A DNA stretch of 62,533 nt, filler included, from Basidioascus undulatus (Eukaryota): NCBI GenBank assembly GCA_000826855.1. It is 10 parts of 10 records of this genome, joined end to end, with 100 filler letters (N's around TTAATTAATTAA, not from the genome) between each part and the next. Parts side by side here need not be neighbours in the genome. Positions count along the whole stretch, not along the records: positions 37,665 to 43,812 come from JTLS01001798.1; 9 more parts are not named here. One strand, written 5' to 3'. Positions within the stretch are counted from its first letter, which is position 1, and each line of letters starts with the position of its first letter. The notes under the pieces were generated by a model that had not been told where the DNA came from, did not search any database, and was given only the letters and a program-made list of their open reading frames with translations. Below are positions 12,858-43,812 of this stretch, in pieces. The position numbers and the translations under genes are program-made.

Positions 12858-14035
12858 TCGGTTTGATGGAGGAGGAGCGGAGAGAGGAAGGAGGTGGAAG
12901 GAAGAGGGAATGCCAGGGGGGGAGGAAGGAGGAGCGCGCGTTTGCGCGTCGGAACGGGATGGGAAGTCCGTTGCTGTTTGAAGGTTGCAGTTGGGAGCTG
13001 TGATGGGATGGGAAATCGGAATGCGGCGGGTTAAGTTACTTATAGACACTTGCTTGCCATTGCTGTCCTGTGTCCTGCCTGCCGTGCCTTGTCTTGTTTT
13101 GTCTGTATGTTGCGTTGCTCGATTGATTAGTTGTGCGGATTGAAGCTCGAGTTGGACGGTGTTGTGTGGTGTGGCTGAAGCGGGGAAGAGAGAAGTGCCC
13201 ATCTGGGTTTACGGTAGCATGCAGGCCATGCAGTTGGCTTGAATGATTTCGCTCTTTCAGAGGTGTATGATATTCGCAAACTGGGGCTGTCGTGAAAAGG
13301 GGGATAGTGGAAAATCAAGGCAAACTGAATGCTGGCTTTCGTGCCGGTGTGGTGAGCACTGAGCAAGGGCTGCGGGTTTCACGGACACCTGTTGACATCC
13401 ATCCCCTTCCTAATTCTATGCCTTTGAGACTAATGTGCTGGGGCTTTCTGTCAAACATGCTTGTGATCAGAAGAAGCAAGTTCTGTCAAGCAGTTGGTTG
13501 TTTGCCCACTTTGTAACAAAGTCAGGTGACATGCAATGAGCCATCCATAAAGACATGCATAGGAGAAGACTTTCTTGAACAACTGTCTTGAGAAACATGA
13601 GGATGTTTGTGAGGACATAAGGACATCTGTGAGAGGACACAAGGATGTCCTTGAGGGGTGGCAGACTTTCTTGCGGACATCCATGAGCACCCAAGGGTAT
13701 CTGTTTTTTTTAGGATGAGTACTTTGTTGAGGACACAAGGGTTCTTGTGAAGACATGAGGACATCCTTGATGGGTATGTGGGCATGAGGACATCCTGGAG
13801 GATATGGGCATCCTTGAGTATATCTTTGGGACAGGATATGTGCAGATGTCCTGCAGGACAGGATTGAGCACAGCTCTACATGGGGACTTGAGGGTATCTG
13901 GGAGGATGTGCAGATGTAGTTGAGCATGTGAGGACATCATGAGAATGTCTGTAAGCACATGCAGTGAAAGGCTGCAAGTGGCATGCACTGGTGTGTCTGC
14001 GGCTGAGACAAGGTGTGCCTGATGCTCAAACAGGT

Positions 14036-14166
14036 TTGTCTGACCCTAAGACATGGCTTGTCTGACCCTCAGACATGGTGTGCTGACCCACAGACATGGC
14101 TTGTCTGAACCTCAGACATGTCTTGTCCCACACCCAGACATGGCTGTTTGATCTACAGACATGGCT
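14036..14166. repeat. Tandem array, ~6 x 21-22 bp, internally palindromic (TTGTCTGACCCTCAGACATGGC)
   Basis: Units read directly; the best unit contains the perfect inverted repeat TGTCTGA-CCC-TCAGACA. Confidence 0.9.
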
Positions 14167-14172
14167 GAACAA

Positions 14173-14540
14173 TTGCCATTTTGTCAAAGCTGTCCTGCAC
14201 TCAAGGACTGCCATTTATGCAAGACAGTCCTCTAATCAGTGCCTGCTTCACTGAAGGACTGCCATTATCAAGGCTGTCCTTCACCTGAACACCTTTTGGT
14301 TGTCAGTCTGACTGAATGCCTTCTGGTTGCCATCCTGACAAAGTGGACTGTAATTGTCAGAATGATAGAATGCTGTCTGGTTGTCATCCTGACAGAATGT
14401 CTTCTGATTGGCATTCTGACTGAATGCCTTCTGGTAGTCACCCTGACAAAGTGCCATTTGTTAAGGCAGTCAGCAGTCCTTTACTGAAGGACTCACATTT
14501 CATCAAAGTGTCCTTCACCCAAGGACTGCCATTTTCTCAA
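14173..14540. repeat. Compound array: ~6 x 27 bp (CTGACTGAATGCCTTCTGGTTGCCATC) flanked on both sides by AAGGACTGCCATT...GTCCTTCAC palindromic units
   Basis: The 27-bp period over ~14290-14455 shows up as a 9-aa repeat (LLVVILTEC-like) in ORF 14239..14487. AAGGACTGCCATT recurs at ~14203, ~14254 and 14521. Confidence 0.85.
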
Positions 14541-37664: not shown

Positions 37665-39422
37665 GCTTCATCCGCTCTTCGTCGTCGTCGTCCTCGAGCA
37701 GCCCGGCAGCGGCGACCTTGGCACGGTTCGCCTCCTTCTCCTTGCGCTTGAGACGCCGGTACGTCTTCGACTTAATCTTCGCCATCCGCTTCGCCTTGAG
37801 CTCCGCGGCTTGCATCAGCGCGCGCTGCTGCCGCAGCAGACGATGCCGCTCGCGCATCGCTTCGGAGTCGGACGGCCGCTGATCGGGGAGAACGTCGCCG
37901 GAGGCCGCGGAGGCGGGCTGGGTGAGGTTCGAGGACTTGAGGAGCGATGAGATTTCAGTCTCGAGCTCGGTGCTCGGCTGCCGAAGAGAGCGTTGTTGTC
38001 AGCACCAAGATTGACCGGGACACTCAACTCGGGAAATACGCACCTGGAACTTGCCCACGAGCTCATCGACACCGCCCTTCTTCGTGCCCTCCTCCTTCCC
38101 GCCGTTACCAGGACCCTGGAGCGGGAAGCTGAGGGTCTCTGCCTCTCTAATCCCGCGCATCGCGCCCTCCCAGCCCTTGACCTCGCCGCGGACGAGCTCG
38201 CGTCCAGCCTCGCGGTCAGCACGCGCCTTGTGGAAGGTCGCGACGGGCGCGTCGAGCGCCTTGTCGCCGCGCTTGAGCGGCTTGGTGGAGGATGCGAGGG
38301 AGGAGGAGAGCGTGGCGGGGAGGGGGGCGAGGAGGGAAGACAGGGAGACTTGGCCTGCAGGGAATCGTGGGGGATGAGCGAGGGGAATGGACCGCAGATT
38401 GAAGAGACGCACCGGTCGTAGGGACGCGGAACTCGGAGTTCTCGCCAAGCGCGGTGGTGTCCTTCAGAACGCGGCGCTTCTTCGAGGCGGTAGTAGGTTC
38501 GGGGCCAGCGTCGGTAGAGGCGGAGGGGCGGGAGGGTTTCGGTGTGGGAAGGGAGTCGACGAAGGCTGCGAGGCGGTCCGCATCGCCCTCCTCCTGCTCC
38601 TTCTCCTCTTGCTCCTCTTCCTCTTCCTCATACTCCTCTTCGTCCTCTTCATCCTCCTCGCTACCGTCTCCCTCTTCCTCCTCCCCTTCCTCCTCATCCT
38701 CCGAGTCCTGCGGCATGTCGAGCATCGCGCTCAGGTCCACCATGCCGCCCTCCTCATCGTCCTCCTCGTCCTCATCCTCATCCTCGGATGGGGGCTCGGG
38801 CGAAGCGAGGCCGGGGTCGAAGTGGACGGACTTCCGGCGCGCGAGGGTCGCGGCGTCGGCGAGAGCGGGAGCAGTCTGAGAGGCGGTCTTGGAAGACGAA
38901 GCTTTGAGCTTTGCGGGTTTCTGGGAGTAAAATATGGCAGCAGTGAGCGAGTGCGGAAAGGGGCGACCTGACAGAGAAAGCCGCCACAGGGCCCGAACTC
39001 ACCGTGCTGCTGCTGCCGCTGAACTTCCACTCGCCATATCGCTCGTCGTCGCTCCCGCCCTCCTCCCATGCATCGTCCGAGTCAATCTCCTCGTCATCCT
39101 CCTCGCGCACGACGCCGTCCTTGTCATGATCGATGCCCACAAACCCGGCAGCGTCTTCGTCGCTGTCCTCGCCGCCGCCGCCCAGGCCCGCCTCCTCCTC
39201 GCGGTCGAGCGCGGTTGAGACGTGCCCACGGCGGTCCCTGGCCGCTGGGAGGTCGTATACGTCCAGCGCGGACGATGCGCCGCCCTTCTTGGCTAGGCGT
39301 CGGGCGTAGCCTGACTTGGCGGACGACTGGGTGTAGGGCTTGTTCTTGCGCGAGTTGAGCGACGCTGCGGTCGGACGGCCACTGCGCGTGCCACCGCGGC
39401 TGGGCTTGCGTGTCGGTCCCAT
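37665..39422 (-). CDS. UTP14: U3 snoRNA-associated protein Utp14, 5' part
   Basis: MGPTRKPSR...DVYD...EEDDEEIDSDDAW...SDDERYG, an acidic tract, LDAPVATFHKARADREAG...VKGW, and RALMQAAELKAKRMAKIKSKTYRRLKRKEK, the hallmark Utp14 motif. Confidence 0.93.
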
Positions 39423-39872
39423 TCCGGTAAGAGGAGTAATTATGGAGGATAAGAGGTACGGCGAGCGCACGCTGCCGAAAGGGTCAAGATGGCAGGCAGG
39501 AAGGCAACTTTGTGGGATTCGCTCGCTCAAGAATCCTGGCCGGCGTGGGAATTTCCGGCTGTCAGTCAACCTGTTCGGCCAACACTGATAGCTTGCAAAC
39601 ATCGATTGCATATATATCGCCAGAGCTGAATTTGCACATGTGTGCCAGAGTCTCCCCTTGCAGAAACCTTTGAGTCCTTGGACAGCCTTCAGCTGAGCTT
39701 TGTATAGGGTGCTCAGGCGGACGCTGCGAACGCACGCTTGCGCCGAGCAGGCGACCGTGCTGTTGTGCAAAGTTTTTGATAACTCAAACGCTGCGGTTCA
39801 AAGGTGCATTTTGGAGTGAAATAGGATGGAAAGAACTCCGTGTGGTCTGCAGTATCCTGGCTGATGGCCAGA

Positions 39873-41000
39873 CTAGTTACCGGACTGTCAAGTCGCAGTG
39901 CAGATTGGCTCAGCAAAAGCTTCGCACTACGATGGAACTAGGGAACTATGGATTGCACCTTTTTCTCATCCTTCTTCTTGTCGTTGTCTTTCTTCTTCTC
40001 ATCGTCCTAATTAGAAGGAGTTCCGCGAGGGAGGTCAGCAACAGAATACGATGGATATGATCAAAGCTTTGACTGCACCTTTTTCTTCTCATCCTTCTTG
40101 TCCTCGTCCTGACTAGAGGGGTCAGTGGAAGCTCAGACTTCACTGTGGACGCCAGTAACGCATCTACGGCACCTTCTTCTTCTCATCGTCCTAATGAGAA
40201 TGAGTTCAGTACCGGATCCGCGATCGATACGAGTAACTGTTGATTGCACCTTCTTCTTGTCCTTCTCCTCGCGCTTCCGCTTGTCATCCTTCTTCTTGTC
40301 CTTGTCATAAAATGGAGCAAGTCAGCGACAGCTCTGACTTCACTATGGATGCCAGTAGAGCATTGAAGGCACCTTCTCGTCCTTCTTCTCGTCATCCTGA
40401 TGAGGATGGGGTCAGCACGAGATGCACGATGGATATGTGTAAATGTTGAATGCACCTTCTTCTTGTCCTCGTCCTGATGGTGGGCTTCAGCCGCAGTCAA
40501 ACTTCACTGTGGATGAATGTAGGATCAAAACACCTTCTTCTTTTTGTCATCTTTCTTATCCTTGCGCTTTGTCTTCTTCTTGTTCTCGCCCTAATCGGCG
40601 GGGGTCAGCGACAGCTCAGACTTCTCTATGAATGAAGTGAAGCGTTGAAGCACCTTCTTTTTGCCATCATCCTTCTTTTTGTCGTCCTCCTATTCGCTCG
40701 AAATGGATCAGCAACAGCCCGCACTCTGTGTTCAATCCAGCATTGACTGCACCTTCTTCTTGTCGTCGTCCTTCTTTTCCTCCTGTAACAATCGGAAAGT
40801 TGGGCGTCAGCATCCCTGCTCCCCGCAAGTAAGTCGCCGCAACGTGCCCTCTTGAGATTGTCATTCCAACGGTGCTTGCTCAGCTCACCCGCCTCCCGAC
40901 GGCTGAGCATGTTGGAGCCAGTCGCGGCCTCGCGCGGCATGGCAATCGCCATGGCGGAGGCGGAGAAGGCGACGATGGCGAGGATGGAGCCGGTGCGCAT
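39873..41000 (-). CDS. Secreted Lys/Asp/Glu-rich repeat precursor (~158 aa) with 11 exons, nine of them repeated phase-0 micro-exons
   Basis: Exons: 41000-40848, 40782-40753, 40689-40654, 40590-40534, 40473-40456, 40396-40373, 40300-40250, 40190-40173, 40108-40079, 40006-39959, 39884-39873. Introns are 59-74 nt and end in AG. Donors are AAG|GTG, except intron 1 (inferred GC donor). Signal-like MRTGSILAIVAFSASAMA, with a propeptide ending LKR. Confidence 0.85.
39930..40810. repeat. Diverged tandem array of ~80-120 bp exon+intron units
   Basis: Recurring plus-strand (G)CACCTT(C/T)TT...GTCCT(A/G)A...(G)TCAG, with two intron types (CAGACTTCACTGTGGA-like and CGATGGATATG-like). Confidence 0.9.
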
Positions 41001-43299
41001 ATTTGAGAAGGGCGGAGAGGGTTTTTGTGTTCTTTTGAAGAGCTTGGGAAACAGCTGGTTGATGTGGCATTCCAACCCGCTTGAAGTTGGCCTTTTTAAC
41101 CGGGAGGCAGCATCAATGCGCAGCCGGGTGACCATAGTCTGTGGCACCAGACTGTTCCGCTGCCTTGTTGGTTCTTGAAGACATTTGCATATGTGCCCGC
41201 ACGAAACACGATGCAGTGGTGTGCACTATATCGCAAACCAGATCTGCCGTCGCTCATCGTTCGCTTAATGAGCCTGGACGTCCTGATTATACCTAAAGCA
41301 AGTCAGGCACAGCCGACGCAGACCCGAAATATATATTTGGTGGGAGACAATGGTGCAATTATTATGATGACTGTGGCTATGGTAGGCGGATGGTTCACGG
41401 TTTGTTTTGCCCGCGGACGCCGCTTGTTGCGGCCTCATTCTACCACCTCGCAGGCGGTACGTGTGAATTTTCCACTTTGATCTGGATATATTCTTTACCA
41501 ATGATCGTTAAAGCAGATAGAATCCCACATGGAGTGACCATCCTAGCTCAGTCTCCGCTCAAGGGCGCAGGAAAAGCAGCCCTTTCTGGTGGGGACGTGG
41601 CAAAAGTGCTTTTATGAGCCCCAGGCATTTTCCCACTTTTGACTGGCTAGTCCCATTTATACAAGACAAAACTCATCACCGCCACGGAGTCCTGCGCTTG
41701 ATCTGATCAGAGGCACGTCTGGCTGCAGGTTTTGGCCGCATCACACAGCTTGACTAGCAGAAATGCTGTATGTGAAGCATGCAAGAAGAGACTGATGTAT
41801 GATACAACTCTGGTGGGAAGCCCATTCATAGTCATAAACAAAGACTTCAACCAGCAGCTCCCGGCCTGTGGGCCTGAACGAGCAAGTAGTACACCATTAT
41901 CTTGGCGTCCGCAAGAGCTCCGACATGTTATTTGGGCCTTAGTGCAACTGTTTATCCACAAACCCTGAACGAAATCTGTGTACCTCTGAAAAATTGAGAC
42001 CAGGAGTCAACCCAGCAGGCGCCGAGCTGTGTCTTTGCACTTGCAGACATGCATGCGAGCAACATATACTGGATACTTGGCGGTACAGAAGCAAGCTCGA
42101 CGTAGACTAGAGATGATGTAATAAAGGATAATGAGAGGTGGGGATATGTAGTATACCCGAAAGAGAAACCACTTGTCTGCAACAGCAGGAGAATACACAA
42201 CCGAGCACGGCTCTGCCTTCTGCGGGTATAAGGTATCTCCCCCTAACATGTAGAAGATTATTCGACGGGAAGCATTGATGAAGTTGTCGATGATAGGTCT
42301 CAAGTACAGAAGAAAGGTGAGAAAGACCGAGCATGTGCTACCTATCTTCCCAACTCCGCAGCATCTCAACTGTCTGTCCCATTTCCTCATCGATGTGAGA
42401 TTTCTTCAAGTGAGCTTTTGCCTTGAACTTTTAATTTTTTTCTATGGGAATGGTCCTGAACTGACATAGTGCTGCCTGAAATGACTGTGCTGTGTTGAGG
42501 ACGGCCATGCCTTTGAAAGTGGCAGGGTGTCTACCAGGGCGTATTTACCAATACCACGGCAGCGATTGAACGGAGGCACGCTGATTATTGTCTTCTTCAT
42601 GAGTAAGGAACAGCTGCGACCTTGAAAGCCATCAGACTGTCCGACACTAACTAGATACACCCTTTGCATTCTCCCTTGCCAGATACAAATCTTATCTCAT
42701 ATTACTTTGTACAAGTTTGAAAAAGAGCCTGAACAACTGGCTCAGATTGATGCGCCTGATACTGGCCAGAGTGGGCAAGATGCGGCCCGCAACGCCATTT
42801 GGCAAGTCCACTTAGACCAACGGTGTCATGGAGCGATATTAGCAGCTTCAATACTGACTTTGACGATGAAGAAAGCGGATTTCATGACGAGTGAGCGAAC
42901 AGATTGCGAGAAAGCGAGGTTGCACGGGCAAAACAAACCGTGAACGTCCCGCCAACCACACTGCCGCGCATCGCAAGGTTTTCTCACTTACAAGCAGCGT
43001 TGCGGGAGGCGTTTGGTGCGAGTGCTTTCGTTGTCCGACATAGGCGCTGCTGGATGCTGGAGTCCTTCGCTTAACCCTGATTGATTACAATTGAGAGGCA
43101 ATATATGAAGCCCATGCCGCTCAACCCACTCCACCTCGACATGCGATGTGCAGCGGACGAAAAGCGAGGTTCGAATCTCGCGAACGAGGATGCCATATGA
43201 GCGTCAGCCGTTCAGTAAAATCCTAAGTCAGTGCGAAAGGATCAAAGCATCATCACGCTGCAGGATCAATCCGTCTAGATGCATGCGGTCCCGTCCATC

Positions 43300-43760
43300 T
43301 CACAGCAAGCCCTTGAGCACTGCAACCTCGGCGTTGATAACAGAGCTGGTCCTGCAACCGCAAAGTCCACTCAGGTCAGCATACGCCAGACGAGAACACG
43401 AAAAGGATGAAACGCACGCAGCGCCGATCTGGACGTTGTTGGCGAGGACGACAAACTTGATGTCAAAGACGTCACACTCGCGCACGCGGCCGACATTGCA
43501 GCCGGCACCGTTCTGGAAGTCGCGGTCGAGGCGGGGCTGGGGGCGGTCGGGCTCGTCATGGACGTAGACGACCTGTTCAGGCGCGGACGGCGCGCCGAGC
43601 TCCTGCGCCTCGCAGCGGTACGCGCGGAGGGCCTCGACGACCTGCTCGGGGGAGGGCGGGGGCCGCTTGGCGAAGCGGACGGACGCGCAGGCCATGTGCC
43701 CGTCGAGGACGGGCACGCGGTTGCACGCCGCGGAGATCTTCATCGGCGTCGACTCGTACG
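43300..43760 (-). CDS. HOM2: Aspartate-semialdehyde dehydrogenase, 3' part
   Basis: MKISAACNRVPVLDGHMACASVRF...DEPDRPQPRLDRD...VGRVREC..FDIKFVVLANNVQIGAA|TSSVINAEVAVLKGLL*. Confidence 0.96.
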
Positions 43761-43812
43761 CTAACCGCTTTTTGCGCTACCTTAGGCAATGGCGGGAACG
43801 GGGCTGTCGCTG

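Follow-up and report, generated by a model that had tools for sequence, protein, structure and literature searches.

A cassette array of exons and introns in a charged, predicted secreted protein gene of Basidioascus undulatus, probably grown by frame-keeping tandem duplication

Disordered proteins encoded by symmetric exons that arose by internal tandem duplication have been outlined for the SIBLING and enamel secretory phosphoproteins (Schad et al., 2013, PMC3632108). In the schistosome micro-exon genes (MEGs), by the account given in PMC4015677, exon skipping has been shown in transcripts and micro-exons make up as much as 75% of the coding sequence. The bicycle genes of aphids are summarised as a secreted family with many small internal exons of the same phase, in which length scales with the number of exons (Stern and Han, 2022, PMC9168663). 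The SP7-like effectors are described as confined to Glomeromycotina, with repeats that end in a conserved island (PMC11333574), and RR followed by EA or DA is given as the Kex2/Ste13 signature of alpha-factor-type precursors, KK being a lesser Kex2 site (PMC6339444). With respect to the origin of introns, the review in PMC3443670 does not count plain duplications of existing introns among the gains that create new splice sites, and it lists introner-like elements as known in fungi.

We analysed a gene on the minus strand (41000-39873) of the window, by which we mean the whole stretch of 62,533 nucleotides of B. undulatus DNA under analysis. The window is composed of ten pieces of ∼6.2 kb from different contigs with runs of N between them, and neighbours across the N runs are not genuine. 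The searched assembly comprises 32 Mb in 2992 contigs, and the gene lies in the piece 37665-43812 (contig C887). The predicted structure consists of a signal-peptide exon, nine internal exons, ten phase-0 introns and a short last exon:

41127..41166, minus strand: upstream block common to paralogs (35/40 columns with C268, 33/40 with C2477); possible promoter
40848..41000, minus strand: exon 1, 51 codons; predicted hydrophobic signal peptide (hydropathy only), pro-region, invariant RR then EA (Kex2/Ste13-like site), KR end
40783..40847, minus strand: intron 1, 65 nt, GC-AG, unrelated to introns 2-10
40753..40782, minus strand: exon 2, 30 nt, K/D/E
40690..40752, minus strand: intron 2, 63 nt, third type; groups with introns 3 and 4 of C268 and intron 3 of C391
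40654..40689, minus strand: exon 3, 36 nt
40591..40653, minus strand: intron 3, 63 nt, type A
40534..40590, minus strand: exon 4, 57 nt, net charge +8
40474..40533, minus strand: intron 4, 60 nt, type A
40456..40473, minus strand: exon 5, 18 nt
40397..40455, minus strand: intron 5, 59 nt, type B
40373..40396, minus strand: exon 6, 24 nt
40301..40372, minus strand: intron 6, type A, 72 nt to the in-frame AAG ending at 40301; homologous acceptor at 40307 without AG
40250..40300, minus strand: exon 7, 51 nt (57 nt from the homologous start at 40306), basic
40191..40249, minus strand: intron 7, 59 nt, type B
40173..40190, minus strand: exon 8, 18 nt
40109..40172, minus strand: intron 8, 64 nt, type A
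40079..40108, minus strand: exon 9, 30 nt
40007..40078, minus strand: intron 9, 72 nt, type B (weaker)
39959..40006, minus strand: exon 10, 48 nt
39885..39958, minus strand: intron 10, 74 nt, terminal; assignable to neither A nor B
39873..39884, minus strand: last coding exon, three codons and stop

Directly downstream lies a Utp14-like gene (PF04615 matches; window 39422 to ∼37609, minus strand) that reaches the end of the contig piece; the Utp14 matches with a named source are from Agaricales, at low coverage. An RPB2 exon reached 75% identity in its best match, and one of the clusters included a Boletellus record; the host is accordingly treated as a basidiomycete. Tandem arrays of 22-nt and 27-nt units were also noticed at window positions 14006-14166 and 14292-14455, in another contig piece.

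Like the SIBLING and enamel proteins as outlined in PMC3632108, the window gene combines a predicted secreted, charged and disordered product (disordered here by composition only) and a signal peptide in the first exon with class 0,0 exons that internal duplication has multiplied. Unlike them, it is fungal and lineage-specific, bears no sequence relation to them, and has introns that are short and still alignable, so that the order of duplication can be read. The layout reported for the MEGs in PMC4015677 is likewise that of a multigene family in which very small symmetric exons come in series after a signal peptide. Skipping has been demonstrated there and is hypothetical in the window gene, whose exons are near-identical low-complexity repeats. 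The internal exons together account for 312/477 coding nt (65%), and those within 36 nt, the size limit of a MEG micro-exon, for 156/477 (33%). With the bicycle genes it shares predicted secretion, many small internal exons of one phase and a length that tracks exon number, but the phase is 2 there and 0 here, there is no cysteine here, and the two are not homologous. The SP7-like effectors, by their description in PMC11333574, are similarly fungal, with a signal peptide, hydrophilic disordered repeats and basic stretches, and the conserved intron that precedes their repeats is a further likeness by analogy only; they differ in their confinement to Glomeromycotina and in the conserved island that ends their repeats, the exon-1 profile returned no true homologue, and the host here looks to be a basidiomycete. 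The KEX2-processed repeat proteins (KEPs) and alpha-factor precursors resemble it in signal peptide, pro-region and RR followed by EA/DA, as presented in PMC6339444. As in the exonic-AGGT tandem-duplication model of intron gain sketched in PMC3443670, intron number rises and the junctions read AG/GT; in that model the new splice sites come from exon sequence, whereas here a whole existing intron was copied. A literature search, with most subscription journals and supplements outside its scope, found no basidiomycete secreted protein of such build.

The ATG at 41000 (minus strand) starts an exon of 51 codons with a hydrophobic N-terminus, and after exon 10 there are three codons and then a stop. 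Exons 2-10 measure 30, 36, 57, 18, 24, 57, 18, 30 and 48 nt, exon 7 being 51 nt when the usable acceptor is taken, while the introns measure 59-74 nt and carry CTGAN branch motifs. The first-pass annotation had described nine exons of 18-57 nt, all multiples of three, in phase 0 and ending in AAG/GTG (exon/intron); this holds for 9/9 internal exons, and 10/10 introns are in phase 0. Parsing by splice signals and K/D/E-rich coding, with intron phase left free, returned the same ten phase-0 introns; the parser was run on the family without the exon-1 matches C391 and C2477 and the DNA-only loci C845 and C2542. The limits given earlier (39885..40847) run from the last base of intron 10 to the first base of intron 1, and the whole gene is wider (39873-41000). 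The splice pattern is a prediction from the sequence, and two of its sites deserve mention. The donor of intron 1, at 40847, is GC (a GC-AG intron), as it is in 3/3 of the nearest paralogs; a phase-1 reading from a GT donor at 40888 was rejected, since exon 3 would then contain a stop and the parser preferred GC. At the homologous acceptor of intron 6 the window gene has TAT in place of the CAG of C268. No further AG occurs until an in-frame AAG 6 nt downstream, which the parser picked and which stands 22 nt past the branch point (14-29 nt in the other introns).

Comparison of the intron cores without their splice signals (45 pairs, 500 shuffles each) revealed that 12/45 pairs of window introns beat all 500 shuffles. 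These are all six pairs within type A (I3, I4, I6 and I8; z 5.5-9.6), all three within type B (I5, I7 and I9; z 3.7-7.7), and I2-I6, I2-I9 and I5-I10. As background, window introns were compared with 28 introns of distant paralogs: the 280 pairs had a mean z of 0.63 and seven exceeded 3.5, six of them on four introns, the single A-like ones of distant paralogs. Mutual similarity of the introns, proposed from inspection, is therefore significant on alignment and shuffling. It applies within A and within B but not to the whole set, as I1 resembles no other window intron (z at most 1.6) and I2 represents a third type. The four type A positions proposed (∼40134, ∼40334, ∼40498 and ∼40617) correspond to I8, I6, I4 and I3, and 6/6 of their pairs are significant. 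For type B, ∼40049, ∼40221 and ∼40427 (I9, I7 and I5; 3/3 pairs) stand, whereas ∼39930 does not: this is I10, which scores against A and B alike (17 vs 18) and groups loosely with the terminal introns of paralogs. The types run A-B-A-B-A-B over I4 to I9, and A-B dimers are 70-78% identical in register compared with 64-68% out of register, which substantiates the alternation and the higher-order A-B unit that had been suggested. No significant linkage emerged between intron type and the motifs of the flanking exons; for the exon-start motif and the upstream intron, P = 0.08.

The gene belongs to a family of at least 12 members in this genome, exon 1 matching 12 places. The closest paralog, C268, has 13 introns compared with 10 in the window gene. 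Phase 0 is ancestral to the family: it was found in 32/33 introns of eight other paralog models, and the one exception belongs to C753, whose exon 1 contains a stop. Across the family models, intron 1 divides the leader from the tail. The same charged composition (86-89% K/D/E) is reached by two members that have longer exons and three introns each, C2 (158 aa) and C2656 (150 aa). One A-like intron each, the last or second-last, is present in C75, C2, C412 and C2248 (best z 7.2, 5.1, 3.9 and 4.4; 23 introns tested). When exon 1 was compared with longer proteins, 0/32 candidates scored, and a profile of nine exon-1 sequences searched against 1.84 billion representatives yielded no true homologue; two profile matches were discarded as composition artefacts in long Ala/Ser/Thr-rich proteins. 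A metagenome scan of 86 stretches gave one locus, whose 23-residue match was judged to be chance. None of nine family members (0/9) reached the curated Pfam cut-off, and the ESM Atlas gave no match at 0.9 for exon 1 or the C2 tail. No relative of the protein family was detected outside the genome in these protein, metagenome, Pfam and Atlas searches.

Several loci of the family, or akin to it, show peculiarities of their own. C1036 (1-280, L018) carries an exact 85-nt exon and intron repeat with a period of 191 that reaches the contig end; either the cassette was duplicated very recently or this is an assembly effect (a break in a longer array). In C2477 (about 1790-2400, L011) several exon and intron cassettes are inverted within the gene, and exon 1 has a frameshift. 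C2248 and C412 (L015 and L017) are longer members (289 and 338 aa) with all introns in phase 0; between their leader and K/D/E tail lie a conserved exon of 63-66 nt and blocks rich in G/N/D/R. C845 (about 1270-2050, L012) has family-like K/D/E exons with apparent frameshifts and no signal exon was detected in it; it is probably a gene fragment. C2542 (about 900-2800, L014) consists of multiple exons, many of them small with a lysine codon at the end, and is rich in K, D, E, P and H; some of its introns look alike, its DNA match is weak, and it has no exon-1 match.

The relationships among the introns permit the duplications to be ordered. In a tree of 31 introns over 69 columns, in which support is modest (6/28 branches well supported), five of the ten window introns each have a C268 intron as sole sister, and these pairs are colinear; the array is therefore older than the split from C268. 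The tree groups I1, I2 and I10 by position and does not resolve I6 and I9. The two copies differ in cassette count at the DNA level (10 vs 13 introns) and appear to be separated by cassette gains or losses after gene duplication. The single A-like intron in four distant paralogs indicates that the founder preceded the array and that an existing intron was multiplied; the window introns are thus copies of a pre-existing intron and not newly created ones. The earlier description of the locus as intron gain by duplication is accordingly right in that exon and intron cassettes were tandemly duplicated, but it is not gain in the strict sense, with new splice sites, as the founder is present in single copy in those four paralogs.

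It is reasonably likely, in our judgement, that this is a lineage-specific gene for a secreted K/D/E polyampholyte that grew by frame-keeping copying of exons with their introns. The ancestral family gene would have had a few phase-0 introns within repeats of K/D/E codons, and unequal crossing-over or slippage between these repeats may have copied an intron together with the adjoining codons. Every new exon would be symmetric because only the copies that kept the frame survived. Early intron copies would then have diverged into types A and B, and the A-B pair would have been copied as a unit before the duplication of the whole gene. All exons are probably spliced in constitutively. Of this account, the gene structure, the homology, the sequence in which the copies arose and the constraint on the exons have been shown from the DNA, and the splicing, secretion, processing and role of the product are inferred. 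The locus is a clear, though not unprecedented, example of gene growth by copying of exons and introns.

We then considered the constraint on the charged exons. Between the window gene and C268, introns differ at 113/519 sites and micro-exons at 35/273, and pN/pS is 0.44 in the micro-exons and 0.47 in exon 1. The codon comparison covered 91/106 codons, the three out-of-frame exons of C268 being trimmed. Among the 32 changed codons, 11 are synonymous, 13 change within K/D/E and 8 leave or enter K/D/E, so that 24/32 are synonymous or K/D/E-keeping compared with an expectation of about a third. A neutral simulation with realignment predicted 27.4 ± 4.3 escapes from K/D/E compared with the 8 observed, and 0/1500 runs gave 8 or fewer. 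These figures support the suggestion that exon changes are mostly synonymous or D/E/K swaps under selection on charge, and the micro-exons appear constrained to K/D/E content, with the provisos that both branches are summed and that slippage or conversion of the repeated codons could mimic part of the signal.

The product is predicted to have 158 residues and no cysteine. Its tail of 107 residues has a charged fraction of 0.93, a net charge of +0.12 per residue and a kappa of 0.036, i.e., well mixed and slightly basic; the GRAVY of -3.59 is a measure of composition only. A hydrophobic N-terminus, by hydropathy only, is kept in the nine exon-1 rows, RR is invariant in 9/9, and EA/DA comes next in 7/8 of the rows that reach past RR. 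Signal cleavage and Kex2/Ste13-like trimming at RR-EA would release the tail, presumably as a disordered polymer that would bind water and ions outside the cell, on its surface or within the matrix. Selection would then act on the composition and rough length of the tail and not on its exact sequence. A secreted disordered polyampholyte is the most likely product, and a KEP-type peptide precursor or an SP7-like host-directed protein is a weaker reading. The former would have the tail cut at KR/KK into short peptides and the conserved W-bearing stretch after the leader as the active product, and RR-EA/DA does fit the Kex2/Ste13 signature given in PMC6339444. A KEP would carry three or more repeated motifs with Kex2 sites between them, and KR/RR occurs only at residues 34, 50, 81, 113 and 115. 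However, unlike in the KEPs, no defined peptide core is repeated between cleavage sites, and with KK runs being frequent, cuts at every KK would leave acidic pieces of two to four residues; the mating-factor-alpha leader that came up as a weak lead in the ESM Atlas (score 0.76) is within the chance range. We regard such a precursor as improbable.

The polyampholyte reading also has to be weighed against other interpretations of the exons, the introns and the state of the gene. The symmetry of the exons is best read as a by-product of duplication and is probably no sign of skipping, for a frame-keeping duplication that holds one whole intron would of itself give an intron of the same phase and a symmetric exon. 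It had been supposed that any exon could be skipped in frame, so that combinatorial splicing or copy-number variation might tune length and charge. In a version modelled on the MEGs (PMC4015677), weak donors inherited by the cassettes would yield secreted isoforms of varying length, their charge depending on exons 4 and 7, with the paralogs varying cassette number in the DNA. A signal peptide with nine symmetric exons gives this some substance, the 512 exon subsets amounting to 244 distinct length/charge pairs, and the donors are indeed weak: +5 G occurs in 0/9 GT donors of the window gene and 2/13 of C268, compared with 25/33 in other paralogs and 7/8 in an RPB2 model (one stop kept). Nevertheless, the symmetry is automatic under duplication and family-wide, C2 and C2656 make the same type of protein without micro-exons, and the exons are near-interchangeable low-complexity blocks whose variants would differ little. 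Skipping would mainly alter length because 7/9 micro-exons are close to neutral (net charge -2 to +1), charge being concentrated in exons 4 and 7. To our knowledge, exon skipping is rare in fungi with short introns. The weak donors were probably inherited from the founder, and did not arise in nine independent events, because C268 has the trait too; the paralogs with a lone A-like intron also have weak +5 positions in it. Among 33 donors, exon-end AG and +5 G did not compensate significantly for each other (P = 0.42). We hold combinatorial skipping to be quite unlikely; if true, the gene would be a fungal parallel of the schistosome micro-exon genes.

A gene with the same history that is now decaying as a pseudogene is less improbable than that, though still unlikely. 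Each of its three nearest paralogs seems to be disabled. Three C268 exons are out of frame, with a stop falling at codon 121 of 189, and exon-1 frameshifts bring stops at codon 38 in C391 and codon 32 in C2477, which also has an internal inversion. The window copy is the sole open frame among these four, its intron 6 lacks AG at the homologous acceptor, and its lack of +5 G donors could be taken as further damage. Against this, the frame is open across 11 exons, though as the chance of no stop under drift is 27%, an open frame alone is a weak sign. The in-frame AAG is usable and falls inside the 14-29 nt range from the branch point, and the weak +5 positions look inherited, being common to C268 and the A-like introns of paralogs. 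Moreover, only 8/106 micro-exon codons are non-K/D/E, where drift on the window branch would have added 18 ± 4 new ones. Homologous introns in similar contexts could conceivably also stem from introner-like mobile elements (PMC3443670) inserted repeatedly at AAG/G sites. All 20/20 DNA matches, however, lie within seven K/D/E-gene loci, and searches with single introns returned only the gene itself and C268, although their sensitivity was low, as they missed known 77%-identical copies. The ordered A-B alternation and the colinearity fit tandem duplication, and we consider mobile insertion very improbable.

The family amounts to a natural experiment: within one genome, the same charged protein is built in two ways, by long-exon repeats in C2 and C2656 and by copied cassettes in the window gene and C268. 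With the founder intron retained in single copy in distant paralogs alongside these two builds, the order in which the introns multiplied can therefore be read. In essence, as the family shows, selection for skipping is not needed for symmetric micro-exons to arise.
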